A stretch of DNA of 64,000 bases from an uncultured Gammaproteobacteria bacterium. GTDB lineage: Bacteria > Patescibacteriota > Microgenomatia > Levybacterales > UBA12049. Both the position numbers and the translations under genes were made by a program. The notes under the pieces were generated by a model, which was not told the DNA's origin, ran no database searches, and saw only the letters and a program-made list of their open reading frames with translations. Of the stretch, positions 1,258-52,782 are shown in pieces. How positions within the stretch are numbered: the first letter of the stretch is position 1; each line of letters begins with the position of its first letter. The stretch is from contig CAYYSJ010000007.1 of the NCBI GenBank assembly GCA_964474445.1, positions 3,112-67,111 on the forward strand. Reading direction: 5' to 3'.

Positions 1258-3072
1258 ATGTCAGCTTCAAACCCGTTACACCACCTTCCCGACCCATTTG
1301 ATGATATTAAAAAAGTGGATATGGGACATTGTTTTAGCGCTAGTAATAGCAATTTGTATGCAAGTGCAGAATTTGGGAGAGATGCAAGGCAACTTGCTGT
1401 TGATGCCCTTATTTTCGATCCCACTATTACCAAACGTGTTGTTATGTCATTGGTAAAACACCAGGCATGGAAACGCAATGATATCACAGAAGCACAACCG
1501 GGGAAATTTCATCATGAACATCGAGAGCTTTTTATTAATGGCCAAAAGATTCCTGAACATTCAGAAAAAATTCTCAGAGAATTATCTGCAAAATGGGGAG
1601 GAACTGATGAAAAAGTTACTTACTATGGAAGTTCTGATATTACTCCTGATGTAGTTAGCCTTATCGCAGAGCTTGCAAAGCAAGACCTTGCTATTTTAAA
1701 GGAAAAAGTTATCAATCACGACAGGAAGAAAAAAATTAGTATTAAAGATAGTGCTCGCCATGGGATTCAGTGGGTCATGGATAGGATTGTCTTTGGTCCA
1801 ACCGTTACGCCACATAATAATATTGTCCAAAAATTCTTGGAGAAAAACCATCTGACGCAATTTGTTCCGACATATCACAATTACGTTTTGCGAAACATTG
1901 ATTGGATGAATCAAAAAATCACCACTGTTGGACAACAGCTTCGACTGCCTCTCTCTCAAAAAAAGAAACGAGTCAAATTACTTGAATTCCAACGTATCAA
2001 TCAACAAGGTATAACGTATCAAGGATGGATGGACGGAGGAACTTCCCTTATCCACTCCTCAAAAGAGATGCAAGGAATTCTTGCAGACTACAGGCAACCG
2101 ATTGCAACCATTGAAATGCAAGGATCTGCAATTGATGCACTTGAAAAAGCTGCATTTCTTTTCCCTAAAAAGGGCAAACATTTTAGAAAATTGGCTGATG
2201 AAGTTCGTGCAAACGTTATCAAACACTTTTGGATGGAAGACAAACAGTTTTTTGCAATGGGAACTGACAGAGAAAACAAAGGAGCACTGAGAAAAATTGA
2301 CACACTCGGAGCAAATGTCGGCGAACTCCTTAACTCTACATTTTTTGATACGATGCTTTTGCATGAAAAACAAAAGTACATCTCAGCAATTTTAACAATG
2401 CTTTTTAGTGATGAATTTCTTACAGACGCAGGTCTTCGTACACGGGCTAAATCTTCTGCTCACCTCACAGACATGTCTGAGAATAAGAATCAACCAAATT
2501 CTCCTTTGGATTATTGGGATTATCAAGGAGCAGAAACATCCTGGATTGTTCAAACAGGAAGAATTGCTGAAGGTCTTCGCATGCAAGGGTTCTACAATTT
2601 GGCGGAGCAATTAGATAACAGAATAGTAAATACCGTCAATCTCTGCAATTTTAATTTGGAATATGTCTATGTTGGAGCAAGAGGACAGTTGGAAAATGTT
2701 GTTGCGTACAAGACAGTTTCAAAGCAAACAATGTATCCACGATCAAAAAATCTTGATGTTGTTACGATCTCTGCAACAAATGTTCCAGAAGCAACGCAAA
2801 CGTGGACTGCATCACGAGTTGCAACAATATTGCATAGGAAAAGCCATCCAGAACTTACTGGACAGACAGAAAAAGAATCTTGGCAGGATAAACTTGAGCA
2901 AACAATCCTTGCTGATTTGAAACAAAAAGGAGCATTTCTTCCGATTTTTGATGCAGAAAAAGTTTTGACACTTCGGGAAACTGCGCCATTATTCGTTGTT
3001 GATCAAGAGAAAGGCAGAAAATTGGAAGAAGACATAAAGGCACATTCTAAAAACTTTTACCTGAATTACTAA
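1258..3072 (+). CDS. Glycogen debranching enzyme-like glycoside hydrolase (amylo-alpha-1,6-glucosidase / GDE_C-type (alpha/alpha)6 barrel)
   Basis: 604-aa ORF. Shares blocks with the 16914..18599 paralog ('KLLEFQRINQQG', 'YPIATIEMQG..DAL', 'HFWMEDKQFFAMGTDREN', 'NSTFFD', 'FLTDAGLRTR', 'DYWDYQG'), the pattern of archaeal/bacterial-type GDE-like hydrolases. Confidence 0.6.
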   Translation: MSASNPLHHLPDPFDDIKKVDMGHCFSASNSNLYASAEFGRDARQLAVDALIFDPTITKRVVMSLVKHQAWKRNDITEAQPGKFHHEHRELFINGQKIPEHSEKILRELSAKWGGTDEKVTYYGSSDITPDVVSLIAELAKQDLAILKEKVINHDRKKKISIKDSARHGIQWVMDRIVFGPTVTPHNNIVQKFLEKNHLTQFVPTYHNYVLRNIDWMNQKITTVGQQLRLPLSQKKKRVKLLEFQRINQQGITYQGWMDGGTSLIHSSKEMQGILADYRQPIATIEMQGSAIDALEKAAFLFPKKGKHFRKLADEVRANVIKHFWMEDKQFFAMGTDRENKGALRKIDTLGANVGELLNSTFFDTMLLHEKQKYISAILTMLFSDEFLTDAGLRTRAKSSAHLTDMSENKNQPNSPLDYWDYQGAETSWIVQTGRIAEGLRMQGFYNLAEQLDNRIVNTVNLCNFNLEYVYVGARGQLENVVAYKTVSKQTMYPRSKNLDVVTISATNVPEATQTWTASRVATILHRKSHPELTGQTEKESWQDKLEQTILADLKQKGAFLPIFDAEKVLTLRETAPLFVVDQEKGRKLEEDIKAHSKNFYLNY

Positions 3073-5479: not shown

Positions 5480-5656
5480 AAATATTTACCTATTTAGCAC
5501 TCTATCAGACATGTTGCTAACTGTCAACCCCCAAAAATACTCTAATCCCTCCTTATCCTCGTAAGAAAATACTATAACTGTATAATACAACTGAACTTAT
5601 GCAAATACGCCAATTTTTTTTCATTGTTCACACTAATAACGAACCTCTTTCTCTGG

Positions 5657-5686
5657 TTGACAGCCTCAATCTGACAGACCTACAAT
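5657..5686 (+). promoter_or_regulatory. Putative sigma70 promoter for the MgtE_N/CBS-Nramp gene pair
   Basis: TTGACA (5657-5662), 18-nt spacer, TACAAT (5681-5686); AGGAAG RBS 5688-5693 ahead of ATG 5696. Confidence 0.4.
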
Positions 5687-5695
5687 TAGGAAGCC

Positions 5696-6877
5696 ATGAT
5701 CTATTTAAGCCAACTTCTTAACAAACCAATTTACCAAAATGGCAAGCCTTTTGGAAAAATTGTTGACCTTGCAATCTTTGAGAATAGGCCAAATCCTCCT
5801 GTTTCAAAAGTAGAAATTAAACACGGTACAGAAAAATTGACCGTCTCCCCCCAAGCACTTACGTTGATGAATAATCATATTTCTTTGCCTGCACAACATA
5901 TTCCTATGCTTCCCTATGATCATAAGGATTTCTATCTCGTTGAAGATTTACTCGATAAACAGGTTATTGATACGGATGGGAGAAGATTGGTTCGAGTTAA
6001 TGATGTAATCCTTGAAAAGAACGGAGAATTTAAGGTGGTCGGCATTGATATTGGTTTTGCAGGTGTACTGAGGCGTTTAGGGTTAGGTATGTTTGCACAT
6101 CAAACGACAGTACTTCCCTGGAATGTTATTGAAGCATTTGATTATCAAACAGGAGATGTCAGAATAAAAATAAAACAAAGCAGTCTGAATACCCTCCACC
6201 CTGCTGATCTTGCAAATATTCTTGAGGATGCAGGAACAAAAGAGCGGATAGGAATTGTTGAAGCACTAGATGCAAAGCAAGCGGCAAGAGCCCTGGAAGA
6301 AGCAGATGAGGAGACACAAGTCTCAATTCTTGAAAACCTGAAGCCAGAGACAATAAAAGATGTTGTCAATAAAATGCATATTGCAGAAATCGCAGATGTC
6401 TTCAAAGACCTGAATCCCTCGAAGGCAAAAGAAGTCCAAAACGCATTAGGTACTGAAAGAACCCAAAAAGTGACTAAATTGCTCTCGTTCTCAGATGATG
6501 TTGCGGGAGGAATGATGCACTTAGGTTTTTTCCAAGCAGAAAGTAGTAAGACAGTAAAAGAAGTTATTAAGGAAATGGAAAATCAAGCAAATGTTCCAGA
6601 AACGATTATTGTTACAAATGAAGGCGGAAAAATAGCAGGAGTTATTAACACGAAAGAACTTCTTATCGCAGACAAATTGTCACTACTGGAGGATAATATT
6701 TCTGATAAAAAATTTGTATTCCCGGATACTCCCTTAGACGATATTATTGAGCTTTTTGCACAATACAACCTCCGAGTTGTTCCTGTTGTTGATCAAGAGA
6801 AAAAACCTGTTGGTATTATCCTTATTGATGATATTCTTAAAATAGTTGAAGAGGAAAATAGAAATGAAGACCTTTAA
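5696..6877 (+). CDS. Cytosolic PRC-barrel + MgtE_N + CBS-pair protein (MgtE-type Mg2+ sensor module with no membrane domain)
   Basis: 393 aa. N-terminal PRC-barrel-like region. The central helical block 'LEDAGTKERIGIVEALDAKQAARALEEADEETQVSILENLKPETIKDVVNKMHIAEIADVFKDL' matches the MgtE N-domain pattern. A C-terminal tandem CBS pair follows. The protein ends with no TM helices. Its 3' end overlaps the start of the Nramp-like gene by 32 nt. Confidence 0.7.
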   Translation: MIYLSQLLNKPIYQNGKPFGKIVDLAIFENRPNPPVSKVEIKHGTEKLTVSPQALTLMNNHISLPAQHIPMLPYDHKDFYLVEDLLDKQVIDTDGRRLVRVNDVILEKNGEFKVVGIDIGFAGVLRRLGLGMFAHQTTVLPWNVIEAFDYQTGDVRIKIKQSSLNTLHPADLANILEDAGTKERIGIVEALDAKQAARALEEADEETQVSILENLKPETIKDVVNKMHIAEIADVFKDLNPSKAKEVQNALGTERTQKVTKLLSFSDDVAGGMMHLGFFQAESSKTVKEVIKEMENQANVPETIIVTNEGGKIAGVINTKELLIADKLSLLEDNISDKKFVFPDTPLDDIIELFAQYNLRVVPVVDQEKKPVGIILIDDILKIVEEENRNEDL

Positions 6878-8102
6878 GAACGTATTTATCCGAATTCTTC
6901 CTCTTCTTGCAATCATTGGGCCTGGAATTATTTCCGGATCTGTCGATAATGATGCAGGAGGGATTACAACCTATTCTCTTGCAGGGGCTTCTTTTGGCTA
7001 CACCCAATTATGGGTATTAACAATTACAACGTTTTGTCTGATTATCACTCAAGAAATTGGCGCACGAATGGGACTTGTCACAGGAAAAGGATTGTCTTCA
7101 TTAATCCGTGAAAAATTTGGTGTGCGGTGGACAACATTTATTATGGGAGTTCTTCTTGCTGCAAATATTGGGACAATTGCTGCAGAATTTGCTGGAATTG
7201 CTGCTGCCTTGGAAATATTCCATATCAGCAAATTAATATCTGTTCCTATTGCAGCTGTTATTATTTATGCTCTTATGTTGAAAGGTAATTTTAAAAGACT
7301 AGAGAGAGTTTTTCTTGTCGCTTCCGCATTTTATCTTGTTTATATTGTTTCTGCTGTTCTTGCCAAACCTGATTGGGGTCTTTCTTTTAAAAGCCTTGTT
7401 GTCCCAACAATACAATTAAATAAAGGATATTTCCTTACCATGATTGCTGTTATTGGAACAACGATCACACCATGGGGGCAATTCTTTATTCAGGACTATG
7501 TGGTAGATAAAAAACTGAGTAAAGATGATTTATCTATTGAGCGAGGAGATGTCATGGTTGGCTCAATACTCACCAACGTTATTTCTTACTTTATTATTAT
7601 TGCGTGTGCTGCAACAATTTTTAGTCACGGTTTGGCTATAAATGATGCAAAAGATGCGGCAATTGCTCTTCAACCACTTGCCGGACATCTGGCTAGTTTT
7701 CTTTTTGCTTTTGGACTTTTGAACGCTTCCATTTTCGGTGCTGCATTAGTGCCAATTTCAACGTCCTATGTTGTCAGTGAAGCTTTTGGATTTGAATCAG
7801 GGCTTAATTTTAGTTTTGAAGAAGCACCTCAATTCTATGGATTATTTGCATTTCTACTGATAATGGGAAGTCTACTCGTTATTCTTCCGTTTGTTCCCCT
7901 CTTAACAATTCTTTTTGTTTCACAGGCAATTAATGCAGTTCTTCTTCTCCCAATTCTTATTTTTGTATACATTCTCTCGAACGATAAAAAATTACTTGGA
8001 GTATATGCAAATAATAGGATTGTTAATATTATTGTTTTGATCACCTTTTTTGGAATTGCAATTGCTTCAATTATTTACTTTGCCACACAGTTTATTCATT
8101 AA
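6846..8102 (+). CDS. Nramp-family transporter, NRMT-like (non-canonical metal site)
   Basis: 418 aa, about 11 TM helices. TM1 reads 'GPGIISGSVDNDAGGITTYSLAGASFGY', aligning to Nramp 'GPGFL..IDPGN..AGA' with DPGN replaced by DNDAGG. TM6 reads 'GTTITPW' in place of canonical 'GAxxMPH'. Confidence 0.75.
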   Translation: MKRKIEMKTFKNVFIRILPLLAIIGPGIISGSVDNDAGGITTYSLAGASFGYTQLWVLTITTFCLIITQEIGARMGLVTGKGLSSLIREKFGVRWTTFIMGVLLAANIGTIAAEFAGIAAALEIFHISKLISVPIAAVIIYALMLKGNFKRLERVFLVASAFYLVYIVSAVLAKPDWGLSFKSLVVPTIQLNKGYFLTMIAVIGTTITPWGQFFIQDYVVDKKLSKDDLSIERGDVMVGSILTNVISYFIIIACAATIFSHGLAINDAKDAAIALQPLAGHLASFLFAFGLLNASIFGAALVPISTSYVVSEAFGFESGLNFSFEEAPQFYGLFAFLLIMGSLLVILPFVPLLTILFVSQAINAVLLLPILIFVYILSNDKKLLGVYANNRIVNIIVLITFFGIAIASIIYFATQFIH

Positions 8103-8293
8103 GAAGTTTATTATCTTTGTTGTAACTTTTTCAATAGATACACTTTCAGTTTTATATAATCCTTACACTCTGTTTCAAGATATATGTAAGAATAAAGAGA
8201 TATTTTTCATCTTCTTCTTACAAAGATTACCTGTAATTTTTATCTTTATCATTTATTCTCCTCATTATATTTGCTCCCCTGACCCCCAAGATT

Positions 8294-10528
8294 ATGCAAA
8301 AACTATCAATTATCATTCCTGTTTTTAATGAAGAGGGAAATATAGAAAAGCTTGTTAAACGAATTGACAAGACATGTAAAGCAGGAAAAATTCTCTATGA
8401 GATTATTTTTGTAGACGATCATTCTACCGATAACACAAGAGAAATAATCAAACTCCTCTCTCCATTCTTCCCTCTTTCACTCCATATGAAACAAAGTAGG
8501 CAAGGTAAATCATATTCGCTTCTTGAAGGATTTTCTTACACAAAGTATGACATCCTCTGCATGATTGATGCCGACTTACAATATGCACCAGAATATATTC
8601 CTGAAATGTTACAAAAAATTTCATTTGCTGATATTGTCATTGCTCATAGGGTAGAACAATCAGTACCTTTGTCTCGAAAACTCCTCAGTAACACACAACA
8701 TCTTCTTTTTAATAAATTGTTACATCATATCGACTATGATGTACAATCAGGACTAAAAATATTTAAAAAGGAAATCATAGAACGTATAACCCTTAATCCG
8801 AAGCCGTGGACATTTGATTTGGAATTCCTATTAAAAGCACAGAATGCAGGATATACAATAATATCCCATGATATTATTTTTCATAAAAGAGTCCATGGTG
8901 TATCAAAAATACATATTCTGAAAGATTCATGGCAGATAGGGCTTGCTGCAATACAATTGCGATTTGCAAAATCTTCTGTTATTCCTTTCGATCCAACAAC
9001 CGCGTTTAAAAACGGAAAAGGATTTCATTACAAGGGACGTACTTTTATTCATCATTCTGAACTTTCTGTTCAGGAGACTGCTTTTTTCCGACTTACTCCT
9101 TCCCAACAGCTCGTCATACTCTTTACTTTCCTTGCCATACTTATGAGTTTTCTTACTGATTGGCATTTCACTATTATTGCATTACTTGCAATACTCACAG
9201 TTTTTTATTTTACTGATCTCTTGTTTAGTTTATTTCTTGTCCTCAGAAATTTTCAAAAACAAACAGAGATTGAGGTGGAGGATACCTATCTTACTTCTCA
9301 CAGAGCATGGCCAATATATACAATATTCTGCCCTTTGTATCAAGAAACCACCGTTATTCCACAATTTGTAGAGGCAATACAAAAACTTGACTATCCAAAA
9401 GACAAATTGCAAGTAATGCTTCTTTTGGAAGAGGATGACCTAGAGACAATCAAAAAAGCTCGTTCTCTTTCTCTCCCATTCTATTTTGAAATTGTTGTTG
9501 TTCCTCACTCGCTCCCTAAAACAAAACCGAAAGCACTTAATTATGGTCTGTCTCTTGCAAAAGGAAATTATGTAGTTATTTTTGATGCTGAAGATATGCC
9601 AGATCCATTACAGCTAAAAAAGGTCGTCGTTGCATTTGAAAAAAGTGACAACGATATCGCCTGTATGCAAGCAAAACTCAATTTTTATAATCCTCATCAA
9701 AATTTATTAACAAGAATATTTACTGCAGAATATTCTTTATGGTTTGATCTAGTACTGACAGGATTACAATCTCTTGAAGCACCTATTCCCTTAGGGGGAA
9801 CATCAAATCATTTCCGAAGACGGGAGTTAAAAAATTTAAAAGGATGGGATTCTTTTAATGTCACTGAAGATTGTGATTTAGGTTTACGGCTTGCTAAACA
9901 AGGATTTAAAACTGCTTTGGTTAACTCAACAACTCTTGAGGAAGCAAACAGTGATATCAAGAATTGGTTTCATCAAAGAGGTCGCTGGATTAAAGGATAT
10001 ATTCAAAGTTATTTTGTTCACATTAGAAATCCAAAAGAGTTTCTCAAACAAGCATCCCTGAAGGACTTTATTTTATTCCAAATTGTTGTTGGGGGCAAAA
10101 TAATGTCATTATTTGTTAACCCTCTTCTCTGGGCAATCACTATTATTTACTTTGCTTTTAGATCACATGTAGGAAATCTTATTGAATCCTTCTTCCCAGC
10201 ACCAGTGTATTATATTGGCACTCTTTCTCTCATTTTTGGAAACTTTCTCTACATGTATTACTACATGATTGCAACAATCAAACGAAGCCATTTTAGCATT
10301 ACAAAATATGCTCTCCTTGTTCCCCTTTATTGGCTCTTCATGAGTATATCCGCCTGGGATGCACTTTATAAGATGATTGTTTCTCCTCATCACTGGGCAA
10401 AAACTGTTCATGGCCTACATCTCAAATCACCTGTTGTTGCACACATGAAAACAGTACAAGAAACGAATACATCATCTCAGAATACTATCCCAAGCTTTCC
10501 TCAAGATATACAACCTGCCTTATCATAA
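8294..10528 (+). CDS. Dual-domain family-2 glycosyltransferase (Dpm1-like polyprenyl-phosphate sugar synthase domain + processive QxxRW synthase domain, membrane-embedded)
   Basis: 744 aa. N-terminal GT2 'IIIPVFNEEGNI...IIFVDDHSTD'. Central TM segments. Second GT2 domain with 'VIFDAEDMPD', 'TEDCDLGLR' and the processive-synthase signature 'QRGRW', followed by C-terminal TM helices. Confidence 0.7.
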   Translation: MQKLSIIIPVFNEEGNIEKLVKRIDKTCKAGKILYEIIFVDDHSTDNTREIIKLLSPFFPLSLHMKQSRQGKSYSLLEGFSYTKYDILCMIDADLQYAPEYIPEMLQKISFADIVIAHRVEQSVPLSRKLLSNTQHLLFNKLLHHIDYDVQSGLKIFKKEIIERITLNPKPWTFDLEFLLKAQNAGYTIISHDIIFHKRVHGVSKIHILKDSWQIGLAAIQLRFAKSSVIPFDPTTAFKNGKGFHYKGRTFIHHSELSVQETAFFRLTPSQQLVILFTFLAILMSFLTDWHFTIIALLAILTVFYFTDLLFSLFLVLRNFQKQTEIEVEDTYLTSHRAWPIYTIFCPLYQETTVIPQFVEAIQKLDYPKDKLQVMLLLEEDDLETIKKARSLSLPFYFEIVVVPHSLPKTKPKALNYGLSLAKGNYVVIFDAEDMPDPLQLKKVVVAFEKSDNDIACMQAKLNFYNPHQNLLTRIFTAEYSLWFDLVLTGLQSLEAPIPLGGTSNHFRRRELKNLKGWDSFNVTEDCDLGLRLAKQGFKTALVNSTTLEEANSDIKNWFHQRGRWIKGYIQSYFVHIRNPKEFLKQASLKDFILFQIVVGGKIMSLFVNPLLWAITIIYFAFRSHVGNLIESFFPAPVYYIGTLSLIFGNFLYMYYYMIATIKRSHFSITKYALLVPLYWLFMSISAWDALYKMIVSPHHWAKTVHGLHLKSPVVAHMKTVQETNTSSQNTIPSFPQDIQPALS

Positions 10529-10534
10529 ATAATC

Positions 10535-12106
10535 ATGAAGAACAAAATATATAAACTATTATTGAAAAGAAAAGAGGAATTCCTTCTTATTTGCATTGCG
10601 TTCATTTTTGCAGTTGCTAGTAGTGTGTTCTTTTTTATCCAAGGCGATATTTTAGCCTATGGAGACGCTGAATCTCATATTAATATTGCTAAGCGTGTCG
10701 TTGACAGCCTCACACCAGGTCTTGCTCAATTGGGTGGTATCTGGCTGCCACTTCCGCATGTTCTGATGTTACCTTTTGTCTATTTTAATATTCTTTGGCG
10801 AACTGGAATTGCAGGATCGATCGTTGGCGGAATATGTTATATAGGCGCAGCTCTCTATTTGTATAAACTTACCTTTTTGTTAACAAAAAATAAAGCTGCT
10901 TCCTTGCTCTCCTTTTTTGTTTTCGTCCTTAATCCAAACGTCTTGTATCTACAATCTACTCCAATGAGTGAATTACCCTTGATTGCATTTTTTGTTCTTT
11001 CAACCTACTACTTTATCCATTTCATTCAGGACGATAAGAGACTTTTTTCACTTATTCTATCTGCATTTTTTGCGTTTTGTGCAAGCTTGTCTCGTTATGA
11101 TGGATGGTTTCTAGTTGGGTTTGAAACCATCGCTCTTTTTCTTTTTTACATCCCTAAAAAACTTTTTCAACAACTAGAAGGGAAAACTGTTTTATTCGTA
11201 ACGCTTGCATTTTTCGGAATAGTCCTTTGGTTACTGTGGGACTTTTTAATTCTTGGTGATCCCTTCTATTTTAGTAATAGTCCATTCTCGGCAAAATCGC
11301 AGCAACAAGCATGGTTTACACGGGGAGAGCTTCCTACCTATAAGCATATGTTTCTCTCATTTGCCTACTATTTTGTAACATCCTTACATAATATTGGTTT
11401 ACTCATTTTCATTCCTACATTAGTGGGATTTATAATTTTTTTATTTCATAAAAAATATTCAAATAAAATCATCATTGTACTACTCCTTACTGTTCCTTTT
11501 ATTTTTTATTGGACGACGCTGTATTTAGGACAATCTGTTATCTTCATTCCAGACTTAACACCAACAACGTTTCATTGGAGGCTATTTAATGTGAGATATG
11601 GTGTTATGATGGTACCGTTTGCTGCGATTTTCTTAGGATATTTATTCACAAAAAAAATACGTCTTTTACAAGGCTTCCTCGTTGTCTGTTTGTTGCTCCA
11701 ATCATTACTTTTCTTTACGGGAAAAGATTCTATCATTTCATTGGAAGACGGAGTTTCTGGTTTATCAGCTGCAAAAAAAGTTGATGCTAGTTTATGGATG
11801 GAGCGTCATTATGATAGAGGTCTTATCCTTTTAGATGATTATGCGAGGACACTCAGTGTTATCAAAAGTGGGCTGCCTATTGAAGACGTTATTTATATCG
11901 GAAATAAACCCTATTGGGAAAATACATTACGAGAACCTGAGAAATATGCAACATGGATTGTTTTGCAAAAAGATGATGCTGTATGGAAAAAACTCTATCA
12001 AGATACAAACCAACGTGGCAGACTATTTAAATACTTCCAAAAAGTGTACACCTCTCCTGAAATTCTTATTTTCAAACGTAATCCTTCCATTGTTGCTTCT
12101 CGCTAA
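10535..12106 (+). CDS. GT-C fold membrane glycosyltransferase (PMT/ArnT-like, GT39/GT83 family)
   Basis: 523 aa polytopic membrane protein with an N-terminal 'YGDAESH' loop motif typical of dolichyl/undecaprenyl-phosphate-sugar dependent GT-C enzymes. The start codon overlaps the upstream GT2 stop region. Confidence 0.6.
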   Translation: MKNKIYKLLLKRKEEFLLICIAFIFAVASSVFFFIQGDILAYGDAESHINIAKRVVDSLTPGLAQLGGIWLPLPHVLMLPFVYFNILWRTGIAGSIVGGICYIGAALYLYKLTFLLTKNKAASLLSFFVFVLNPNVLYLQSTPMSELPLIAFFVLSTYYFIHFIQDDKRLFSLILSAFFAFCASLSRYDGWFLVGFETIALFLFYIPKKLFQQLEGKTVLFVTLAFFGIVLWLLWDFLILGDPFYFSNSPFSAKSQQQAWFTRGELPTYKHMFLSFAYYFVTSLHNIGLLIFIPTLVGFIIFLFHKKYSNKIIIVLLLTVPFIFYWTTLYLGQSVIFIPDLTPTTFHWRLFNVRYGVMMVPFAAIFLGYLFTKKIRLLQGFLVVCLLLQSLLFFTGKDSIISLEDGVSGLSAAKKVDASLWMERHYDRGLILLDDYARTLSVIKSGLPIEDVIYIGNKPYWENTLREPEKYATWIVLQKDDAVWKKLYQDTNQRGRLFKYFQKVYTSPEILIFKRNPSIVASR

Positions 12107-12227
12107 ACTAAACACTATCCAGTTACATGGATAAAACTCGACAACCTATCTTGCTCAACTATTACAGACTCTTACACGAAGTCTTAAACATACAAATTAG
12201 AGTAAAAGAAGAGAGGAGGTGTCTTGT

Positions 12228-12380
12228 ATGCTTAAGTCATCTATTATTATCATGAGTATCCTTGTATTTGCGCTTCTTATTATGCAAGGAGTTCGTGCAC
12301 AATCGCCATCAACAACAAATAATCCAACACCGACAAGAATGGTACCAAGTGGTGCTCCTTCTACAGGATTTGGAGACTAA
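12228..12380 (+). CDS. Small secreted peptide (50 aa) with signal peptide; hypothetical
   Basis: Absent from the ORF track because it is under 60 aa. Strong SD 'GAGGAGGTG' lies 7 nt upstream of the ATG. Sequence MLKSSIIIMSILVFALLIMQGVRA|QSPSTTNNPTPTRMVPSGAPSTGFGD. Sits immediately upstream of the sortase gene. Confidence 0.35.
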   Translation: MLKSSIIIMSILVFALLIMQGVRAQSPSTTNNPTPTRMVPSGAPSTGFGD

Positions 12381-12443: not shown

Positions 12444-13013
12444 ATGAAAAAGTGGATTATTGTCGTAGTATTTTTCATCATTCTATTGATTAGTTCCATT
12501 TTTTATTATAAGTCACAAAAAACTACTTTCTCATTTAACTCACAATTTTCTCCTACACCCATAAAAGAAATCGTTGGCATTCCAATACTCCTCACCATTC
12601 CACGATTTCACATAAGCGTAAAAATAGAATCCGTGGGACTAGATAGTAAAAACAGAATGGATATACCAAAAGATTTTACCAATGTCGCCTGGTATAATTT
12701 GGGGTTTAAACCAGGGGAAAAAGGAAGTGCAGTTATTGATGGACATGTAGATACACCAACAGGAGCACCTGCTGTCTTTGCACAAATTTCTACTCTTCAA
12801 AAAGGTGACATTATTTCAATTCAAGACTCGTCTAGTAAAACACATTCCTTCACTGTAACAAATGTTATTACCTATCCTTATAACCAACTACCTCTTCAAA
12901 CTATTTTTAATAGTATAGATAAACCACGACTTAACTTGATAACATGTGCGGGAATCTGGGATAGCGTGAATAAAAACTATTCAGAAAGAACTGTTGTCTT
13001 TGCAGAAGAGTAA
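12444..13013 (+). CDS. Sortase family transpeptidase
   Basis: 189 aa. N-terminal membrane anchor, catalytic His in 'VIDGHVDT', Cys in 'LNLITCAG' (TLxTC motif), and C-terminal Arg in 'ERTVVFAEE'. Confidence 0.8.
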   Translation: MKKWIIVVVFFIILLISSIFYYKSQKTTFSFNSQFSPTPIKEIVGIPILLTIPRFHISVKIESVGLDSKNRMDIPKDFTNVAWYNLGFKPGEKGSAVIDGHVDTPTGAPAVFAQISTLQKGDIISIQDSSSKTHSFTVTNVITYPYNQLPLQTIFNSIDKPRLNLITCAGIWDSVNKNYSERTVVFAEE

Positions 13014-16913: not shown

Positions 16914-18599
16914 ATGGGTACTGAAATTCGATCACAATTGAAGCAAGTGAGGCAAGATTTACCTCACAATTTTCAGGTGCGTACATTTCCTAATAAGGTA
17001 GGTCTGGTAAATAGATTACGACTTTGGAAAGAGATGTCGCGTGAGATGAGGCATTTTAGAGGTGAGGTGTGGCATAAAGATGAGATATGGGCAAGTAACA
17101 GTGAGAATTATAGTTATGCTTTTTTTGGAAGAGATAGTCTTGAAGCCTCGGAAGATACCCTTCCCTTTGATACCACATTTGCAAGAGACACTATTCGCAA
17201 TTTAAGTAGACTGCAAGGCCGCTCATATAATGCTGTGACAGAAGAAGAACCAGGGAAAATTGTTCATGAATTCAGACAAAAAAGTAATACCCACCCACAA
17301 GCAACGCAGGAAATCTTTCAAAAACTCCATGATATGTGGGGGGAAAAAGGAACAGATTTTGTTAGTTATTACGGTAGTGCAGATGCAACGCCACTCTACA
17401 TACGACTTGTTGCAGATTATTGCCAACAGGTAGGCAATACCAACATTCTTGATGAAATAATAATCCAGAAAGATGGAAAAGAAAAATCAATTAGAGAAGT
17501 CTTATGGAACAGTTTGGAATGGTTACAACGACGCGTTGAAGATGGTCCTCTAGGACCTGATGGATTATCTACTGAGCCTCATCCTGACAAAAGAATAAAA
17601 CTTCTTGAATTTAAGCGAATGAATGAAAAAGGAATCGAAAATCCCATTTGGAAAGATTCTCTTACTTCCGTCATGCACCCAGACGGAACATTAGCAAATC
17701 ATGATTATCCTATTGCAACAATTGAGCTGCAAGGTTTAGCTTATGATGCATTAACAAAGGGAACAGAACTTTTTAAAGAAGACTATACAAAGGCTCAAGC
17801 GAGAGCTGGTATGCTCCTCACTGCCTCTGAGGTTCAACTGAATACGTTGACTCATTTTTGGATGCCTGAGCGGAATTATTTTGCCGTTGGGTTAGATAGA
17901 GACGATAATGGTAATTATAGACAAATACGAACTATAGAATCAAACCCAGCAGAACTTCTGAATACGACATTTTTTGATAAGCTCCCTGAGCATATGAGAC
18001 AACCGTATATCACAGGTATTGTTAATACAATTTATAGTAAGAACTTTTTAACAGACGTTGGAGTTAGATGCAGATCATTAGAATACACAGGTATGATAGA
18101 TTTCTGGGATTATCATGGAGTTCACGCTGTGTGGCCAAAAGAAACATATGATATTGCAAAAGGACTTTTGAAGCAAGGATTTCCTCAATTAGCAGAACAA
18201 CTTTTTTTTCGTATGAGAAACGGTATGAAAGTTGAAAACTCATTTGCCGAATTATTTTACGTTGACGATGATGGTTCTGTAGCTTATAAACCAAAAAAAT
18301 TACTCGACACAAATGCACAACACGGCAAGGTTATTGTCACAACATCTGTTCCTGAAGACAAACAAACATGGTCTTGGAGTGCATACATTGCAAGTGTCCT
18401 TAATAGAAGGATAAAACCAAACATACTATCTTGGCAATATAAACTTGAAGAGCAACTTCTTCTTGCAAATCCGTTAGTAGAACCTCTTTCATTTAGAAAA
18501 GCCAGAGCTCTTATGCGAAGAGCATACGTCATTGATCAGCAAACTGCATTTGATAGAGAAAGAGTGTTCAAAGGAAAACTGAGACGAACTGCAGATTAA
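16914..18599 (+). CDS. Glycogen debranching enzyme-like glycoside hydrolase, paralog of 1258..3072
   Basis: 561 aa sharing collinear motif blocks with the first GDE-like ORF ('KLLEFKRMNEKG', 'YPIATIELQG..DAL', 'HFWMPERNYFAVGLDRDDNG', 'NTTFFD', 'FLTDVGVRCR', 'DFWDYHG'). Confidence 0.6.
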   Translation: MGTEIRSQLKQVRQDLPHNFQVRTFPNKVGLVNRLRLWKEMSREMRHFRGEVWHKDEIWASNSENYSYAFFGRDSLEASEDTLPFDTTFARDTIRNLSRLQGRSYNAVTEEEPGKIVHEFRQKSNTHPQATQEIFQKLHDMWGEKGTDFVSYYGSADATPLYIRLVADYCQQVGNTNILDEIIIQKDGKEKSIREVLWNSLEWLQRRVEDGPLGPDGLSTEPHPDKRIKLLEFKRMNEKGIENPIWKDSLTSVMHPDGTLANHDYPIATIELQGLAYDALTKGTELFKEDYTKAQARAGMLLTASEVQLNTLTHFWMPERNYFAVGLDRDDNGNYRQIRTIESNPAELLNTTFFDKLPEHMRQPYITGIVNTIYSKNFLTDVGVRCRSLEYTGMIDFWDYHGVHAVWPKETYDIAKGLLKQGFPQLAEQLFFRMRNGMKVENSFAELFYVDDDGSVAYKPKKLLDTNAQHGKVIVTTSVPEDKQTWSWSAYIASVLNRRIKPNILSWQYKLEEQLLLANPLVEPLSFRKARALMRRAYVIDQQTAFDRERVFKGKLRRTAD

Positions 18600-19156: not shown

Positions 19157-20203
19157 ATGAGACAGATAAAACCAGTAAACAAAACAGTACGAAAAATTGC
19201 AATTTTTCGGGCTCTTCAATTAGGAGATATGCTTTGCAGTATTCCGTCATTTCGTGCACTCAGAGCATATTATCCGGATACCAAAATTACGCTCATAGGG
19301 CTTCCTTGGGCGAGGGATTTTGCACAAAGATTTCCTCACTATATTAACGAATTTTTTGCATTTCCAGGATATCCCTCTTTGCCGGAAAGAAAATTTAATC
19401 TTGAAGCATTTCCACGATTTTTACAAAAAGTGCAAGACGAACAATTTGATCTCGTTTTTCAAATGCATGGATTAGGTACAATAACGAATCCACTCATCAC
19501 ACTCTTTCATGCAAAACAGTCTGCCGGATTTTATATAAAAAATACCTATTGCCCTAACAAGAAAATGTTTTTTATCTATCCAGAAGAACTCCATGAAACA
19601 CATAAATATTTATTCTTACTTAAACAACTTGGGATTCCCTCTCAAGGGAACTATTTAGAATTTCCTATATCAAAAACCGAAGAGTATCAAACAACAATAC
19701 TCATGCAAACATATGGCATAAAAAAGAAGAAATATATTATGTTGCATCCAGGAGGAAGAGATAAGAAAAGACAAAATGGTGTTACACTCTTCTCTACACT
19801 TGCAAATGTTCTTACTCATCAAGGGTATACTGTTGTTCTGACAGGAACTGCAAACGAACAGACTCTTTGTAAACAAATACTCAAAGAAACCACTTCAAAA
19901 AATATCATTGACCTTTCTGGAAAAACACAGTTAGGCCAACTTGCGTATATCATACAACATGCTTCACTTCTTGTTTCTAACGATACCGGCGCATCTCATC
20001 TTGCTGACGCACTTCATACACCAAGTGTTATTCTTTTTACACCTTACTCAAATCAAAATCGTTGGGCACCCTTAAATACGCAGCTCCATATATCACTCGC
20101 CCCACCCTACTCTCTTGACCAGATACTGAATACTGCAACTGCACTACTTTATCATGATATGGCAAGTCGCGTATCTCCAAGAAAGGAGCACTATGCAAAC
20201 TAA
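19157..20203 (+). CDS. GT9 family glycosyltransferase (ADP-heptose-dependent heptosyltransferase-like), copy 1
   Basis: 348 aa. N-terminal 'KIAIFRALQLGDMLCSIPSFRALRAYYPDTKITLIG' and C-terminal 'SNDTGASHLADAL' are the conserved GT9 (WaaC/WaaF/WaaQ-like) blocks. Confidence 0.75.
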   Translation: MRQIKPVNKTVRKIAIFRALQLGDMLCSIPSFRALRAYYPDTKITLIGLPWARDFAQRFPHYINEFFAFPGYPSLPERKFNLEAFPRFLQKVQDEQFDLVFQMHGLGTITNPLITLFHAKQSAGFYIKNTYCPNKKMFFIYPEELHETHKYLFLLKQLGIPSQGNYLEFPISKTEEYQTTILMQTYGIKKKKYIMLHPGGRDKKRQNGVTLFSTLANVLTHQGYTVVLTGTANEQTLCKQILKETTSKNIIDLSGKTQLGQLAYIIQHASLLVSNDTGASHLADALHTPSVILFTPYSNQNRWAPLNTQLHISLAPPYSLDQILNTATALLYHDMASRVSPRKEHYAN

Positions 20204-21203
20204 CAGACCTCGGATACTTACCTGGCATATTCATGGAAGTTATTTATATTACTTAACACAAACTGCATGCGAATTTTATATTCCGGTAAAAGAGGAACGA
20301 CCAGATCGCTATATTGGCTTGCCTGAAGGTGACTTCCCTTGGGGAGAGAATGCTCACGAAATTGCAGCTGAAAAAATAAAAGAGCTTGATTTTGATTGTA
20401 TCCTTTTTCAGTCTCAAGAAAATTATACCCAGGATCAGTATGAGGTTCTTTCAGCACAACAGCTTAGCCTGCCCAAAGTATATCTTGAGCATGATCCTCC
20501 TCGTGAAACACCGACAGATACCAAACACATTGTTGATGATCCAGATATCTTGCTAGTCCATGTCACGCATTTTAATAATGTATTTTGGGACAATAATCAA
20601 ACTCCGACAACTGTTATTGAACATGGTGTTTCCATTCCAAAAGATATCCAGTATGTGGGAAACTTGCGTAAAGGCATTGTTGTTGTTAATAACCTTCAGA
20701 CAAGAGGAAGAAGACTTGGACTCGATATTTTTGAATCAGTAAAAAAGCACATTCCAGTAGATATTATTGGTATAAACTCACAATATGTTGGAGGACTTGG
20801 GGAAATTTCTCATCAAAGACTTCCCTCATTTCTTGCTCACTATAGATTTTTCTTCCACCCCATCAGATATACCAGTTTAGGACTCGCCGCTTGTGAAGCA
20901 ATGATGATAGGACTTCCCATTGTTGGATTATCAACAACAGAGATGCCAGATGTGATTGAAAATGGTAAAGAAGGGTTTTTACACAACGATATCGCTACTT
21001 TAATACAACACATGCAAGAGTTACTCAATGATAAGGCATATGCGAAAAGATTGAGTCAAAATGCAAAGAATAAAGCATTGAAAAAGTTTCACATAAAGCG
21101 TTTTGTAGAAGATTGGGAAGATCTTTTTCAATCTGAAATACAAAAGCATAAGAGGAAAGCTCTACAACATACAATGAGAAAAAGTATAGGAGGAATTTTA
21201 TGA
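20193..21203 (+). CDS. GT4 family (GT-B, retaining) glycosyltransferase
   Basis: C-terminal 'EAMMIGLPIVGLSTTEMPDVIENGKEGFL' matches the GT4 E-x7-E region. I prefer the start at ATG 20193 (AGGAG RBS) over the track start 20154; it overlaps the upstream gene by 11 nt. Confidence 0.7.
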   Translation: MQTNRPRILTWHIHGSYLYYLTQTACEFYIPVKEERPDRYIGLPEGDFPWGENAHEIAAEKIKELDFDCILFQSQENYTQDQYEVLSAQQLSLPKVYLEHDPPRETPTDTKHIVDDPDILLVHVTHFNNVFWDNNQTPTTVIEHGVSIPKDIQYVGNLRKGIVVVNNLQTRGRRLGLDIFESVKKHIPVDIIGINSQYVGGLGEISHQRLPSFLAHYRFFFHPIRYTSLGLAACEAMMIGLPIVGLSTTEMPDVIENGKEGFLHNDIATLIQHMQELLNDKAYAKRLSQNAKNKALKKFHIKRFVEDWEDLFQSEIQKHKRKALQHTMRKSIGGIL

Positions 21204-23104
21204 AAAAAAGATTAGCTTTTATATCAGAGCATGCATCTCCCCTAGCCGCATTAGGAGGAGTTGATAGCGGAGGACAAAATTTATATGTAGACCAAGTAGC
21301 CAAGCATCTTTCAATGTTAGGGTATGAAATTGATATTTTTACGCGTTGGGATAATCACCAACTTCCTAAAGTGATTAATTATCAAAATGGCATACGTGTT
21401 ATTCATATAAAAGCAGGTCCTGTCCAATACATTAAGAAAGAACTGCTCCTTTCCTATATGCATGAGTTTACTATAGAGATGTTACGGTTTATTGAGGAAG
21501 AGGAACTTACCTATAAGTTAATCCATGCTAACTTTTTTATGTCAGCACTTGTTGCTTCAGAAATAAAAAAGGAACTTCGAATTCCCTTCGTTGTCACATT
21601 CCATGCATTAGGAAAAATACGACGTATGTATCAAGGTGACAAAGATACATTTCCCGATACGCGATTTACTATCGAAAAAGAAGTATGCAACAGTGCGGAT
21701 CAAATTATCGCAGAATGTCCCCAAGATAAAGAAGATCTCATGTATCACTATCATGCAAGCCAAGATAAAATAAGCATTATACCTTGTGGATTTGATCCAA
21801 ATGAGGTATACCCTCTTGATAAACATCTTGCAAAAATCACCATAGGACTTGATCCTCACAAGAAATATATTTTGCAACTAGGTCGTATTGTCCCCCGAAA
21901 AGGTATTGATACTGTTATTGCTTCATTTGCAAAACTTCGTAAAAAAACACAAGGACAAGTAAAACTACTCATTGTTGGAGGAGAATCTGATGAGCCAAAT
22001 TCTTCTATTACTCCCGAAATTGGAAGACTACAAAACATTGCGAAAGCATTACATGTTGCAACAGATGTCATCTTTTTAGGGAGACGATCACGTGAACAGT
22101 TAAAATATGTATATAATGCTGCTGATATCTTTATCAGTGTCCCGTGGTATGAGCCATTTGGTATCACTCCTCTTGAAGCAATGGCATGCGGAACACCAGT
22201 GATTGGTTCTCGTGTTGGAGGAATAAAATTTAGTGTTATCGATGGAAAAACCGGTTTTTTAGTAGAACCACATGATACAGAAATGCTTGCAACAAAAATG
22301 CAGGAATTGTTAACAAATGAAAAGCTTGGAAGATCTTTCTCAGAGAATTCGCTAAAAAGAGTTAATGAATTCTTTACATGGAAAACTGTTGCATCAATGC
22401 TTTCAACAATCTACGAAAAAATTCTTTACTCCCAAAAACTTTCTGTTCAACAATATAATGAACAATCAGATATTGTAGACAGAAACTTTGAAGTACTCAT
22501 AACAACTGTTCAACGGTCTCAACAAAAACTGCGACTGTCCATTGTTCATACAACCCGAATTTTGTATACGTGTTTACAAAATGATGGAAAGATACTGATT
22601 TGTGGAAACGGAGGAAGTGCGACAGATGCTCAACATTTTGCAGGAGAACTCGTTGGCAGATTTAAAATAGAAGATAGACTTGCCCTCCCTGTCCTTTCCT
22701 TAACAGCAGATTCATCAATATTAACAGCAATAGGCAATGACTATTCATTTGAGAATATTTTTGCAAGGCAAGTTGAAGCATATGGGAAACCGGGAGATGT
22801 CCTTATTGCAATTAGTACAAGTGGTAATTCAAAAAATATTATCAATGCTCTCAAGACAGCGAGAGAAAAGGACCTTATCTGTATCGGATTTACAGGCAGA
22901 AGCGGTGGAAAGATGATAGATGATTGTGATATTTCACTTGTTGTCCCTGCAGATCAAACTTCCCTCATCCAAGAAATTCATACGCACCTGATTCATTCGA
23001 TATGTGAACTTATTGAAAAACAACTGTTTTACTCTCATGAACAATCACTATCTAAATCTAAAAAAAATATAAACGATACAATGCCAGTGGCAAAAAATGG
23101 ATAA
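21200..23104 (+). CDS. Fusion protein: GT4 glycosyltransferase + SIS-domain sedoheptulose-7-phosphate isomerase (GmhA-like)
   Basis: 634 aa. Residues ~1-400 are a GT4 fold ('GGQNLYV', 'EPFGITPLEAMACGTPVIGS', 'E..NG..GFLVEP'). Residues ~440-620 are a SIS domain with GmhA hallmark 'ILICGNGGSATDAQHFAGELVGRF' and 'ISTSGNSKNI'. Confidence 0.7.
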   Translation: MKKRLAFISEHASPLAALGGVDSGGQNLYVDQVAKHLSMLGYEIDIFTRWDNHQLPKVINYQNGIRVIHIKAGPVQYIKKELLLSYMHEFTIEMLRFIEEEELTYKLIHANFFMSALVASEIKKELRIPFVVTFHALGKIRRMYQGDKDTFPDTRFTIEKEVCNSADQIIAECPQDKEDLMYHYHASQDKISIIPCGFDPNEVYPLDKHLAKITIGLDPHKKYILQLGRIVPRKGIDTVIASFAKLRKKTQGQVKLLIVGGESDEPNSSITPEIGRLQNIAKALHVATDVIFLGRRSREQLKYVYNAADIFISVPWYEPFGITPLEAMACGTPVIGSRVGGIKFSVIDGKTGFLVEPHDTEMLATKMQELLTNEKLGRSFSENSLKRVNEFFTWKTVASMLSTIYEKILYSQKLSVQQYNEQSDIVDRNFEVLITTVQRSQQKLRLSIVHTTRILYTCLQNDGKILICGNGGSATDAQHFAGELVGRFKIEDRLALPVLSLTADSSILTAIGNDYSFENIFARQVEAYGKPGDVLIAISTSGNSKNIINALKTAREKDLICIGFTGRSGGKMIDDCDISLVVPADQTSLIQEIHTHLIHSICELIEKQLFYSHEQSLSKSKKNINDTMPVAKNG

Positions 23105-23112
23105 ACAAACGA

Positions 23113-23835
23113 ATGGAAACGTTGAAAAATAAAATTATTCTTATTACAGGTGCAGGACAAGGACTTGGTGAAGCAACAAGTCGAGTACTAGCAAAAGAGG
23201 GTGCAATTATCCTGGCTGCTGATATTCAATATGAATTAGTTGTTTCACTCATTGAGGATCTTATTGCACAAGGGTATCAAGGTGAAGCGTTTCATCTTGA
23301 CGTAACAAACGATGACTCTATACAAAAAGTGCTTGACACTATTATGAATAGTTATGGACATATCGATGTTTTAATTAATAATGCGGGGATCGATGTAACC
23401 AAGCCTATTGAAGAAATAGCGATTGAAGAATTTGACCACATTCTTTCGGTCAATTTACGAGCACCATTTATATTATCAAAGTCTGTTCTTCCTTTTATGA
23501 AACACTCTGGAGGGAGTATTGTCAATATTATTTCTACAGCAGCAAAACGTGCATGGGTAAATGCTTCTGCTTATCATGCAAGTAAATGGGGATTATTAGG
23601 ACTCTCCTATGCATTACATGTTGAAGGAAGAAAAAAACATATTAGGGTTTCAGCTGTTGTTGCAGGAGGGATGAAGACACCTTTTATTTTAAACCGTTTT
23701 CCTGATACACCGCTTGAGGTGTTACAGAACCCTGAAAGAGTTGCTGAAATCATTAAGTGTGTGCTTTTGGTACCTGAAGAATCAGTCGTCCCTGAAGTAA
23801 TGGTGCTTCCTATGCAAGAAACATCATGGCCATGA
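23113..23835 (+). CDS. Classical short-chain dehydrogenase/reductase (SDR)
   Basis: 240 aa. 'ITGAGQGLGEA' cofactor motif, 'NNAG' motif, catalytic 'YHASKWG' (YxxxK). Confidence 0.8.
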   Translation: METLKNKIILITGAGQGLGEATSRVLAKEGAIILAADIQYELVVSLIEDLIAQGYQGEAFHLDVTNDDSIQKVLDTIMNSYGHIDVLINNAGIDVTKPIEEIAIEEFDHILSVNLRAPFILSKSVLPFMKHSGGSIVNIISTAAKRAWVNASAYHASKWGLLGLSYALHVEGRKKHIRVSAVVAGGMKTPFILNRFPDTPLEVLQNPERVAEIIKCVLLVPEESVVPEVMVLPMQETSWP

Positions 23836-24398
23836 TTATGAAAAAAGCAATTTTTATTGATAAGGATGGGACACTGATTACCAATGTTCCTTATAATGTA
23901 GACGTTAATAAAATACAACTCGTGAATGATGTTGGACCAAGTCTCCTGCGTCTTTCCCAACATGGATATCTGTTTGTTGTCATAACAAATCAGTCCGGCA
24001 TTGCAAAAGGATTATTTACCGAAGAACAGCTATCTCCTGTTTTTCAAACAATACAAGCACTTTTAGATGCATTTCATGTAACTCTTGCTGGGTTTTATTA
24101 TTGTCCACATCATCCTCAGGGGACTATCAGTTCGTATACAAAGACTTGTTTTTGTCGCAAACCTTTACCTGGTCTTCTTTTCCAAGCAGCATCTGATTTA
24201 CACATAGACATTTCTTCCTCATGGATGATTGGGGATATGCTAACAGACGTTGAAACTGGAAATAAGGCAGGGTGTAAAACGATATTGCTCCACAATAGTA
24301 ATGACATAGAAGAAGATATATCTCCTCATAATATTCCCTATTACATAGCACCAACCTTTCGCGACATCGTTGACGCAATACTTCTATCAGAGAAGTGA
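23826..24398 (+). CDS. gmhB: D-glycero-D-manno-heptose 1,7-bisphosphate phosphatase (HAD family)
   Basis: 190 aa. HAD motif I 'IFIDKDGTLI', 'VITNQSGIAKG', Zn-binding-like 'CPHHP...CFCRKP' loop, motif 'MIGDMLTDVETG'. Confidence 0.75.
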   Translation: MAMIMKKAIFIDKDGTLITNVPYNVDVNKIQLVNDVGPSLLRLSQHGYLFVVITNQSGIAKGLFTEEQLSPVFQTIQALLDAFHVTLAGFYYCPHHPQGTISSYTKTCFCRKPLPGLLFQAASDLHIDISSSWMIGDMLTDVETGNKAGCKTILLHNSNDIEEDISPHNIPYYIAPTFRDIVDAILLSEK

Positions 24399-24428
24399 CT
24401 ACAATCGATACACCCAATTATATACTGT

Positions 24429-28519: not shown

Positions 28520-28537
28520 GTAAAAAGCCAATATTGC

Positions 28538-46762: not shown

Positions 46763-46769
46763 ATATAGA

Positions 46770-51930: not shown

Positions 51931-52094
51931 CTCCTATGTAAAAGGTAATATTGGAAAGTTCGCCTGAAAGAAGAGGATTATCTAAGAGGAACCATACAAA
52001 AATAATCTACAATCTCTTATAAACTCTTTTTGTTTAGCGACGTCTTAACACCTCTTCTCGTTGAGCTTCGACTATTGCTGAAAGACGTATGCGT

Positions 52095-52276: not shown

Positions 52277-52306
52277 ATTATAAAACTTTAAATTTTAGTT
52301 TGTCAA
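52277..52306 (-). promoter_or_regulatory. Strong sigma70-type promoter driving the M-box/Nramp-like operon
   Basis: Minus-strand TTGACA (plus-strand 52301-52306), 18-nt spacer, TATAAT (plus-strand 52277-52282); perfect consensus hexamers. Confidence 0.5.
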
Positions 52307-52780: not shown

Positions 52781-52782
52781 CT

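Follow-up and report, generated by a model that had tools for sequence, protein, structure and literature searches.

What do three Nramp-fold proteins encoded within 45 kb of one another transport, and did they arise by recent duplication? We addressed these questions for a 64,000-nucleotide stretch of DNA (the window; positions 3,112 to 67,111 of contig CAYYSJ010000007.1, G+C ~37%) from an uncultured bacterium that GTDB places in the Levybacterales of the Patescibacteriota. A sequence-only reading of the window had taken the three proteins for Mg2+-type Nramps that had expanded in this lineage, two of them behind an M-box riboswitch. Our own reading, to which we give a probability of roughly 0.8, is that the proteins, called P1, P2 and P3 here, are three anciently diverged Nramp-related (non-Slc11) members of Pfam family PF01566. 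P1 and P3 would be NRMT proteins under different controls, and P2 would represent a separate clade. The three genes are as follows (aa, amino acids; TM, transmembrane helix).

6864..8102, plus strand: P1, predicted NRMT-family transporter, 412 aa from the ATG at 6864; DAGG in TM1, TTITPW in TM6, TM10 Gln kept
48591..49892, minus strand: P2, predicted Nramp-related transporter, 433 aa; DDDPSG in TM1, TTISPY in TM6, TM10 Gln replaced by Ala, TM3 Glu replaced by Asp
50248..51921, minus strand: P3, predicted NRMT-family transporter, 557 aa from the ATG at 51921; DAGG in TM1, TTVAPW in TM6, TM10 Gln kept

The open reading frames (ORFs) lie where the sequence-only reading had placed them (6846..8102, plus strand; 48591..49892 and 50248..51930, minus strand). 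P1 is likely to start at ATG 6864, which has GAGGA 8 nucleotides (nt) upstream; the mechanically called ORF begins at TTG 6846. Similarly, P3 is likely to start at ATG 51921 behind GGAGG, the mechanical ORF having an earlier TTG/GTG-type start. We prefer the two ATG codons because the database versions of both proteins begin there and not at TTG/GTG. P1, P2 and P3 are full-length Nramp-fold proteins (PF01566; E 5.6e-90, 7e-71 and 1.7e-71, respectively). We rejected decay into pseudogenes, since the ORFs reach full length when set against their homologues (95-100% coverage) and their site residues vary little or not at all. The closest genomic relatives of P1 were found in metagenome-assembled genomes (MAGs) labelled Candidatus Levyibacteriota or Patescibacteria, at 66-76% identity, which makes a bacterium of the candidate phyla radiation with a small genome the most likely source.

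The top solved relative of P1, P2 and P3 was EleNRMT (7qia), with scores of 344, 159 and 192 bits, respectively (E 1.4e-101 for P1); DraNramp reached 72, 56 and 40 bits. The NCBIfam models for MntH scored far below their cut-offs, with 106, 98 and 103 bits against 430 for NF001923 and 64, 51 and 47 bits against 272.5 for TIGR01197. The DraNramp chain that matched P1 best was 8e6i, the M230A mutant (ATVAPH) and not the wild type, probably because M230A mimics the NRMT site. For the phylogeny, we put the wild-type Met back into the DraNramp sequence and built a neighbour-joining tree with Kimura distances from 38 sequences and 404 columns (200 bootstraps). E. coli MntH, DraNramp and BfraNramp were split from the three families plus EleNRMT with 100% bootstrap support, and the P1, P2 and P3 families each formed a 100% clade. 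The P1 and P3 families grouped with EleNRMT (62%), and the P2 family formed a separate branch closest to the canonical group. By the model scores and the tree split, none of the three proteins is a canonical MntH, in line with the sequence-only reading.

The published NRMT signature is DxxG–TxxA/T, and EleNRMT moves Mg2+ and Mn2+ without H+ coupling (Ramanadane et al. 2022). The transport expected of NRMT proteins extends to Mg2+ (and Mn2+) but not to Ca2+. DxxG in TM1, in which the Asn of DPGN is replaced by Gly, is present in all three proteins (DAGG, DPSG and DAGG). P1 (TxxT) and P3 (TxxA) fit the TM6 part as well; P2 misses it and has TTIS. Judged by sequence, P1 and P3 are members of the NRMT family, and membership of P2 in NRMT proper is doubtful. 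Further Nramp-related groups exist beside NRMT, most of which are called entirely uncharacterised (Cellier 2022 and a 2026 preprint).

The strings quoted in the sequence-only reading for P1, P2 and P3, DNDAGG, DDDPSG and DNDAGG in TM1 and GTTITPW, GTTISPY and GTTVAPW in TM6, are exact. A structure-based alignment had been proposed there as a check. HMMER alignment to solved structures put the motifs on the Nramp metal-site positions with maximal posterior probability, and a multiple alignment with DraNramp, E. coli MntH, BfraNramp (10KY) and EleNRMT confirmed this placement. Canonical DPGN (TM1) and A-x-x-M-P-H (TM6) are missing in all three proteins. The residues found at the site are listed in DraNramp numbering.

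D56: Asp in P1, P2, P3 and EleNRMT
N59: Gly in P1, P2, P3 and EleNRMT
E134 (TM3): Glu in P1, Asp in P2, Glu in P3, Glu in EleNRMT
A227: Thr in P1, P2, P3 and EleNRMT
M230: Thr in P1, Ser in P2, Ala in P3, Ala in EleNRMT
H232: Trp in P1, Tyr in P2, Trp in P3, Trp in EleNRMT
Q378: Gln in P1, Ala in P2, Gln in P3, Gln in EleNRMT
E124, D131, R352 and R353 (proton pathway): non-ionisable in P1, P2, P3 and EleNRMT

The reported change of the TM6 His to Trp or Tyr is borne out at H232. The reported change of Met to Thr applies to P1 but not to P2, which has Ser, or P3, which has Ala. The accompanying remark on soft and hard ligands was imprecise: in EleNRMT, replacement of Met by Ala enlarges the site for a hydrated ion, and the hard ligand is the Thr at the Ala-227 position. 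The canonical proton-pathway residues (E124, D131, R352, R353 and H232) are replaced by non-ionisable ones in all three families. In P2, position T130 is Asn.

We sampled site conservation in 21-22 homologues per paralog family. The signatures were fixed within each sampled family, the sole variation being at the Met position of the P2 family (Ser in 20/21, Thr in 1/21). All 22 sampled members of the P1 family and all 21 of the P3 family had the TM10 Gln, and all 21 members of the P2 family had Ala. Because they are fixed or nearly so across the sampled members, we take these signatures to be selected states and not the outcome of chance or decay. In EleNRMT, D55, T224 and Q379 matter for function, and Q379A strongly compromises transport (Ramanadane et al. 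2022). By homology with EleNRMT, P3 and P1 would be uniporters without H+ coupling, powered by the membrane potential. Their widened site, formed by the Asp of TM1, the Thr of TM6 and the Gln of TM10, would let Mg2+ (and Mn2+) enter in largely hydrated form.

Genes for Nramp-related proteins downstream of M-box riboswitches have been described previously, and Mg2+ uptake was shown (Shin et al. 2014). P3 has this arrangement. The M-box at 52045..52261 on the minus strand is the sole Rfam match in the window and sits between a 12/12 promoter and the P3 start codon.

52277..52306, minus strand: sigma-70 promoter, TTGACA-18-TATAAT, perfect 12/12 consensus; precedes the M-box and is kept in a related locus, L063
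52045..52261, minus strand: M-box Mg2+ riboswitch aptamer (RF00380), 117.3 bits against a gathering threshold of 44; model matched in full (1-169), one hairpin carrying a 48-nt insertion
51931..52044, minus strand: expression platform, fold of -41.4 kcal/mol, z -3.96

Thus, of the two genes that the sequence-only reading had put behind an M-box, P3 is directly downstream of the single M-box present, and P2 would follow it only by co-transcription. A simple terminator scan gave no U-tract terminator after the aptamer. CCUCUU-type elements are able to pair either with the 3' strand of aptamer helix P1 (the RNA helix, not the protein; GAGAAGAGG) or with the GGAGG Shine-Dalgarno sequence, and such a platform element is kept in L063. 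Since there is no U-tract terminator and the two alternative pairings are kept in L063, we infer that the platform acts on translation. P3 would be switched off at high cytosolic Mg2+, probably via sequestration of the Shine-Dalgarno sequence.

An M-box was present in 3/7 P3-family loci, namely the window, L063 and L064 (Collibacillus; 159 bits, followed by the transporter gene and then MgtC), and was not found in 4/7. In two of the seven loci, an MgtE_N–CBS gene lies upstream and overlaps the transporter gene; in another, an MgtE_N gene is divergently oriented; one locus has neither. Members of the P3 family are 541-609 aa long and share a conserved N-terminal motif, VLDPAHLGDIYGAWGTI (P3 residues 30-46), and a C-terminal extension (P3 residues 470-560) with two extra hydrophobic helices and a conserved W-R-M-Q-P-L..L-P-K-P motif. 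Both extensions are absent from EleNRMT and from P1. Taken together by analogy with EleNRMT, P3 is likely to be an EleNRMT-type uniporter for Mg2+ (and Mn2+) that is uncoupled from H+ and controlled by the riboswitch. The label "Mg2+-type", which the sequence-only reading had given to all three proteins, is well supported for P3 and not for P1 and P2.

Divergent from the M-box promoter, with overlapping promoter-like sites, lies a gene pair for an ArsR/SmtB-type metalloregulator and a CDF cation-efflux transporter (52367..53718, plus strand). The same divergent ArsR–CDF pair adjoins the P3 orthologue in L063, so that metal import and efflux stand side by side.

Most members of the group described by Shin et al. 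(2014) adjoin a gene for the cytosolic domain of MgtE. P1 follows a gene of this kind, whose stop codon is overlapped by the P1 start by 14 nt.

5657..5686, plus strand: sigma-70-like promoter, TTGACA-18-TACAAT, 11/12, a consensus match only; ends 10 nt before the ATG of the MgtE-like gene
5696..6877, plus strand: soluble MgtE-like protein, 393 aa, with a PRC-barrel (78-160), MgtE_N (167-268) and a CBS pair (Pfam), and no membrane domain

Residues 150-388 of the MgtE-like protein align to the cytosolic domain of T. thermophilus MgtE (2yvy residues 17-259, E 9.6e-27). The protein is not itself an MgtE channel, as it ends at the CBS pair and has no membrane domain; we regard it as a fragment-type paralog. 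Among 57 related loci with upstream sequence included, 56 have an MgtE-like gene directly before the P1 orthologue, and the transporters in the MgtE-paired loci carry TxxT or TxxA. The intergenic region 5480..5695 gave no Rfam match at the gathering threshold. Because the promoter-like site ends 10 nt before the MgtE-like ATG, there would be no room for a riboswitch leader, and no M-box was found among 22 P1-type loci. We presume that the MgtE-like protein is a cytosolic sensor or partner of P1. P1 is translationally coupled to this protein, a Mg2+-sensing cytosolic domain with a PRC-barrel, which plausibly gates or tunes it. Such control at the protein level by an MgtE-like sensor was proposed by Shin et al.

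The lone exception among the 57 loci, L038 from a Chloroflexota MAG, carries tandem P1-like genes (6070..7221 and 8103..9233; 66% and 50% identical to P1) and no MgtE-like fragment upstream. In most related loci, tblastn matches begin at residue 1, which suggests that the PRC-barrel is a conserved part of the MgtE-like partner.

P2 lies downstream of P3 on the same strand after a small ORF, and we found no promoter-like or terminator-like site between P3 and P2.

49977..50201, minus strand: His/Glu-rich helical ORF of 74 aa between P3 and P2; the L063 ORF in the corresponding position is 63% identical

The 74-aa ORF had one close relative among 1.84 billion proteins, the other matches being spurious repeat proteins; it could encode a small metal-binding protein. 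L063 has the same succession of M-box, P3, small ORF and P2, with orthologues at 81% and 72% identity. There, a gene for an MgtA-type Mg2+ P-type ATPase follows 13 nt after the P2 orthologue (9774..12305, plus strand; TIGR01524, 940 bits against a cut-off of 611). In this lineage, P2 probably shares a transcript with P3, which would tie it to Mg2+ status. Where L063 has its MgtA gene, the window has a fused ABC permease (46770..48524) and an AAA_assoc_C-containing ATPase (45467..46843) of the nitrate/sulfonate/taurine type.

At the site of P2, TM1 has three Asp in a row and a Ser, TM6 has Ser and Tyr, and TM3 has Asp and Asn; the TM10 Gln is missing, and the NRMT-like DxxG and TM6 Thr are kept. 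Its AlphaFold 2 (AF2) model (pLDDT 83) had 7qia as the top fold match (TM-scores 0.84/0.91). By these residues and the tree, P2 belongs to a third, widespread Nramp-related clade with a predicted harder, more acidic site.

Several points weigh against the reading of P1 and P3 as NRMT proteins and of P2 as a recruit to the same regulon. Transport by all three families is a prediction. The tree is a neighbour-joining tree of 38 sequences, and its inner nodes are weak (27-62%). EcoDMT given the NRMT site residues gained no Mg2+ transport; site residues alone are therefore no proof of selectivity. The NrmT of Acidobacterium capsulatum rescued Mn2+ uptake fully and Mg2+ uptake weakly or partly, and the co-expressed MgtE fragment of this organism had no effect in the assay (Shin et al. 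2014). Outside Levyibacteriota, P2 orthologues stand alone, with no Mg-related neighbour and no M-box (Mucilaginibacter and a JGI contig). Finally, P2 has Ala at the position where Q379A cripples EleNRMT.

The alternative that survives best concerns P1, which might be mainly a Mn2+ importer, with an MgtE-like partner that senses something other than Mg2+ or has another role. A. capsulatum NrmT, which resembles P1 in gene arrangement and in being without an M-box, rescued the Mn2+ mutant fully and the Mg2+ mutant weakly. The 22 P1-type loci are likewise without M-boxes, and EleNRMT also moves Mn2+. In addition, a gene for an Fe/Mn superoxide dismutase is present in the window, whose ORFs showed no canonical MntH. 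However, P1 retains the Asp, Thr and Gln on which EleNRMT depends for handling Mg2+ and conforms to the signature in its TxxT form, and its partner is homologous to a domain known to sense Mg2+ (and ATP). Moreover, the comparison of A. capsulatum NrmT with P1 is one of gene arrangement. We therefore consider a mainly Mn2+-importing P1 somewhat improbable but worth serious attention, and keep P1 as an NRMT protein that would take up Mg2+ and Mn2+. The dismutase gene, which bears on whether a Nramp-related paralog supplies Mn2+, lies at 32637..33305 on the minus strand. Among the window ORFs of at least 120 aa there is no canonical MntH, CorA or full-length MgtE.

The second alternative is that P2 is no Mg2+/Mn2+ NRMT but handles another, harder or more charged cation, or coordinates its ion in another way, and that its place behind P3 is incidental. 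The fixed D-D-D-P-S-G and T-x-x-S-P-Y motifs, the changes of TM10 Gln to Ala and TM3 Glu to Asp, and Asn at T130 speak for this, as do the separate clade and the orthologues elsewhere that are without Mg-linked context. Furthermore, four features mirror plant NRAT, an Al3+ transporter: Ser68 in DPSN, Thr241 at the Met position, Tyr243 and loss of the TM10 Gln. On the other hand, EleNRMT is still the top match of P2 in both sequence and fold, and the NRMT-type DxxG and TM6 Thr are shared. In two Levyibacteriota genomes, P2 also belongs to an M-box-led gene string, in one of them between an NRMT gene and MgtA. We hold the other-cation alternative to be less likely than not, but appreciable.

We tentatively put forward a further possibility for P2. 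It may represent a widespread selectivity class that mixes NRMT features with residues otherwise present only in NRAT, with a substrate or coordination unlike those of EleNRMT and MntH. In Levyibacteriota, it would have been recruited into an M-box-led Mg2+ regulon, between an NRMT gene and (in the relative) MgtA. P1 and P3 share no NRAT-specific residue. The neighbours of P2 orthologues in Mucilaginibacter, the JGI contig and Levyibacteriota contigs (LigD, a HAD hydrolase, UPF0182 and an MFS fragment) gave no hint of a substrate, and no M-box was found upstream of six P2-type loci. P2 as an NRAT was rejected, as it has DPSG and TxxS instead of DPSN and AxxT. We also rejected the MntG/YcsG type of B. 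subtilis ("G-motif 3"): its structure, 9a52, was absent from the PDB sequence matches of P2 at E<=0.001 and ranked 18th in the fold search, with 16% identity.

A recent duplication in this lineage that gave three Mg2+-importing Nramps, as the sequence-only reading had proposed, is in our view very unlikely. The three copies inside 45 kb, the soft Met ligand missing in all of them and the one M-box present would fit it, and other Levyibacteriota contigs repeatedly have P1 and P2, or P3 and P2, in close proximity. The paralogs, however, are just 20-36% identical to one another, and each has orthologues at 60-85% identity in other phyla: Acidobacteriota for P1, Bacteroidota and Saccharimonadales for P2, and Chloroflexota and Bacillota for P3. 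Each family is a 100% clade, and the site chemistry differs among the paralogs (Thr, Ser or Ala; Gln or Ala). As far as sequences can tell, P1, P2 and P3 are three old, co-occurring subfamilies and not a lineage-specific expansion. That they are canonical H+-coupled Mn2+/Fe2+ MntH proteins with misaligned motifs, as database names of homologues such as "Mn2+/Fe2+ NRAMP family transporter" would have it, is refuted for practical purposes by the maximal posterior probabilities at the motifs, the MntH model scores of ~100 bits against 430, the loss of the proton-pathway residues and the 100% tree split.

Genes named automatically "Mn2+/Fe2+ NRAMP transporter" are, in this window, of the NRMT type, and at least for P3 an import of Mg2+ is very probable. 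A Patescibacteria lineage with a small genome keeps three Nramp-related transporters under three control arrangements, namely a riboswitch, a soluble MgtE-like partner and neither. The M-box-led NRMT and the NRMT coupled to an MgtE fragment have both been published. The P2 clade, its hybrid ion site and the apparent recruitment into an M-box gene string in Levyibacteriota go beyond the literature on the evidence of sequence and synteny, and we judge them moderately novel. The window offers a compact natural system for two questions that have stood since 2014: what role the MgtE-like fragment plays for NRMT, and which residues of the site (the Ala, Thr or Ser in place of Met; the TM10 Gln) determine whether Mg2+ or Mn2+ is preferred. 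In the current literature, the P2 clade falls among Nramp-related groups described as entirely uncharacterised.

The rest of the window contains nothing that alters the Nramp reading; it also encodes Lon, besides the Fe/Mn superoxide dismutase and the ArsR–CDF pair.

19157..29587, plus strand: ADP-heptose/GT9-like cluster with three GT9 heptosyltransferase-like genes, a PfkB–cytidylyltransferase fusion (HldE-like), a GT4–SIS fusion and a HAD phosphatase
12444..13013: sortase
37543..41487, minus strand: ORF of 1314 aa without a Pfam match, in the one region of raised G+C in the window (0.44)
1258..3072, plus strand: ORF of 604 aa without a Pfam match
16914..18599, plus strand: ORF of 561 aa without a Pfam match
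10535..12106, plus strand: ORF of 523 aa without a Pfam match

An ADP-heptose-like pathway is unusual in a presumably monoderm bacterium of the candidate phyla radiation (CPR) that also encodes a sortase. The four large ORFs had no Pfam match at the thresholds used.

Among known systems, EleNRMT of Eggerthella lenta (PDB 7QIA, 7QIC, 7QJI and 7QJJ) is the nearest to the window proteins. Its site is identical to that of P3 (D-A-G-G, T-x-x-A-P-W and the TM10 Gln), and the sole site difference from P1 is Thr for Ala at the Met position, which lies inside the published consensus. In P2, the Met position has Ser, Trp is replaced by Tyr and Gln379 by Ala. The H+ pathway residues are missing in EleNRMT as in P1, P2 and P3. 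Overall identity to EleNRMT is just 42% for P1, 31% for P3 and 29% for P2, and P3 differs from it further by its N- and C-terminal extensions and two extra hydrophobic helices. Canonical Nramp/MntH proteins (DraNramp, E. coli MntH and BfraNramp 10KY) share the LeuT-type fold, the TM1 Asp and the TM3 Glu/Asp with the window proteins and match the P2 model with TM-scores of 0.78-0.82. Identity to them, however, is 17-27%, and the window proteins are without DPGN, AxxMPH and the proton-pathway charges.

Plant NRAT (OsNrat1/SiNRAT, PDB 8ONT) shares with P2 the Pro-Ser of TM1, a hydroxyl residue in place of Met, a Tyr in place of His and the loss of the TM10 Gln (Ser in NRAT). Where P2 has Gly and Thr, however, NRAT retains the Asn of TM1 and the Ala of TM6 (DPSN–AxxT). 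It is a eukaryotic branch inside Slc11, and its likeness to P2 is one of single residues, with 16% identity in the fold alignment.

The MgtE channel of T. thermophilus (PDB 2YVX and 2YVY) shares its cytosolic Mg2+ sensor, the N domain and CBS pair, with the MgtE-like protein encoded upstream of P1. The latter, however, is without the five-helix transmembrane pore, has an additional N-terminal PRC-barrel and is encoded by a separate gene beside an Nramp-fold transporter. The same arrangement is found in A. capsulatum, where the MgtE-fragment gene ACP_2976 lies directly upstream of NrmT (ACP_2977) and, as for P1, there is no M-box. This NrmT behaved as a Mn2+ transporter in complementation. We liken it to P1 by gene arrangement; P1 has 72% identical homologues in Acidobacteriota. 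In Clostridium acetobutylicum, CabNRMT/NrmT (Ca_c0685 and Ca_c3329) has an M-box before the Nramp-related gene, as P3 does. NrmT of this organism restored Mg2+ uptake, and genes for the MgtE cytosolic domain were tied to the group (Shin et al. 2014). Compared with this group by arrangement, the window has its M-box (P3) and its MgtE-like partner (P1) divided between two paralogs.

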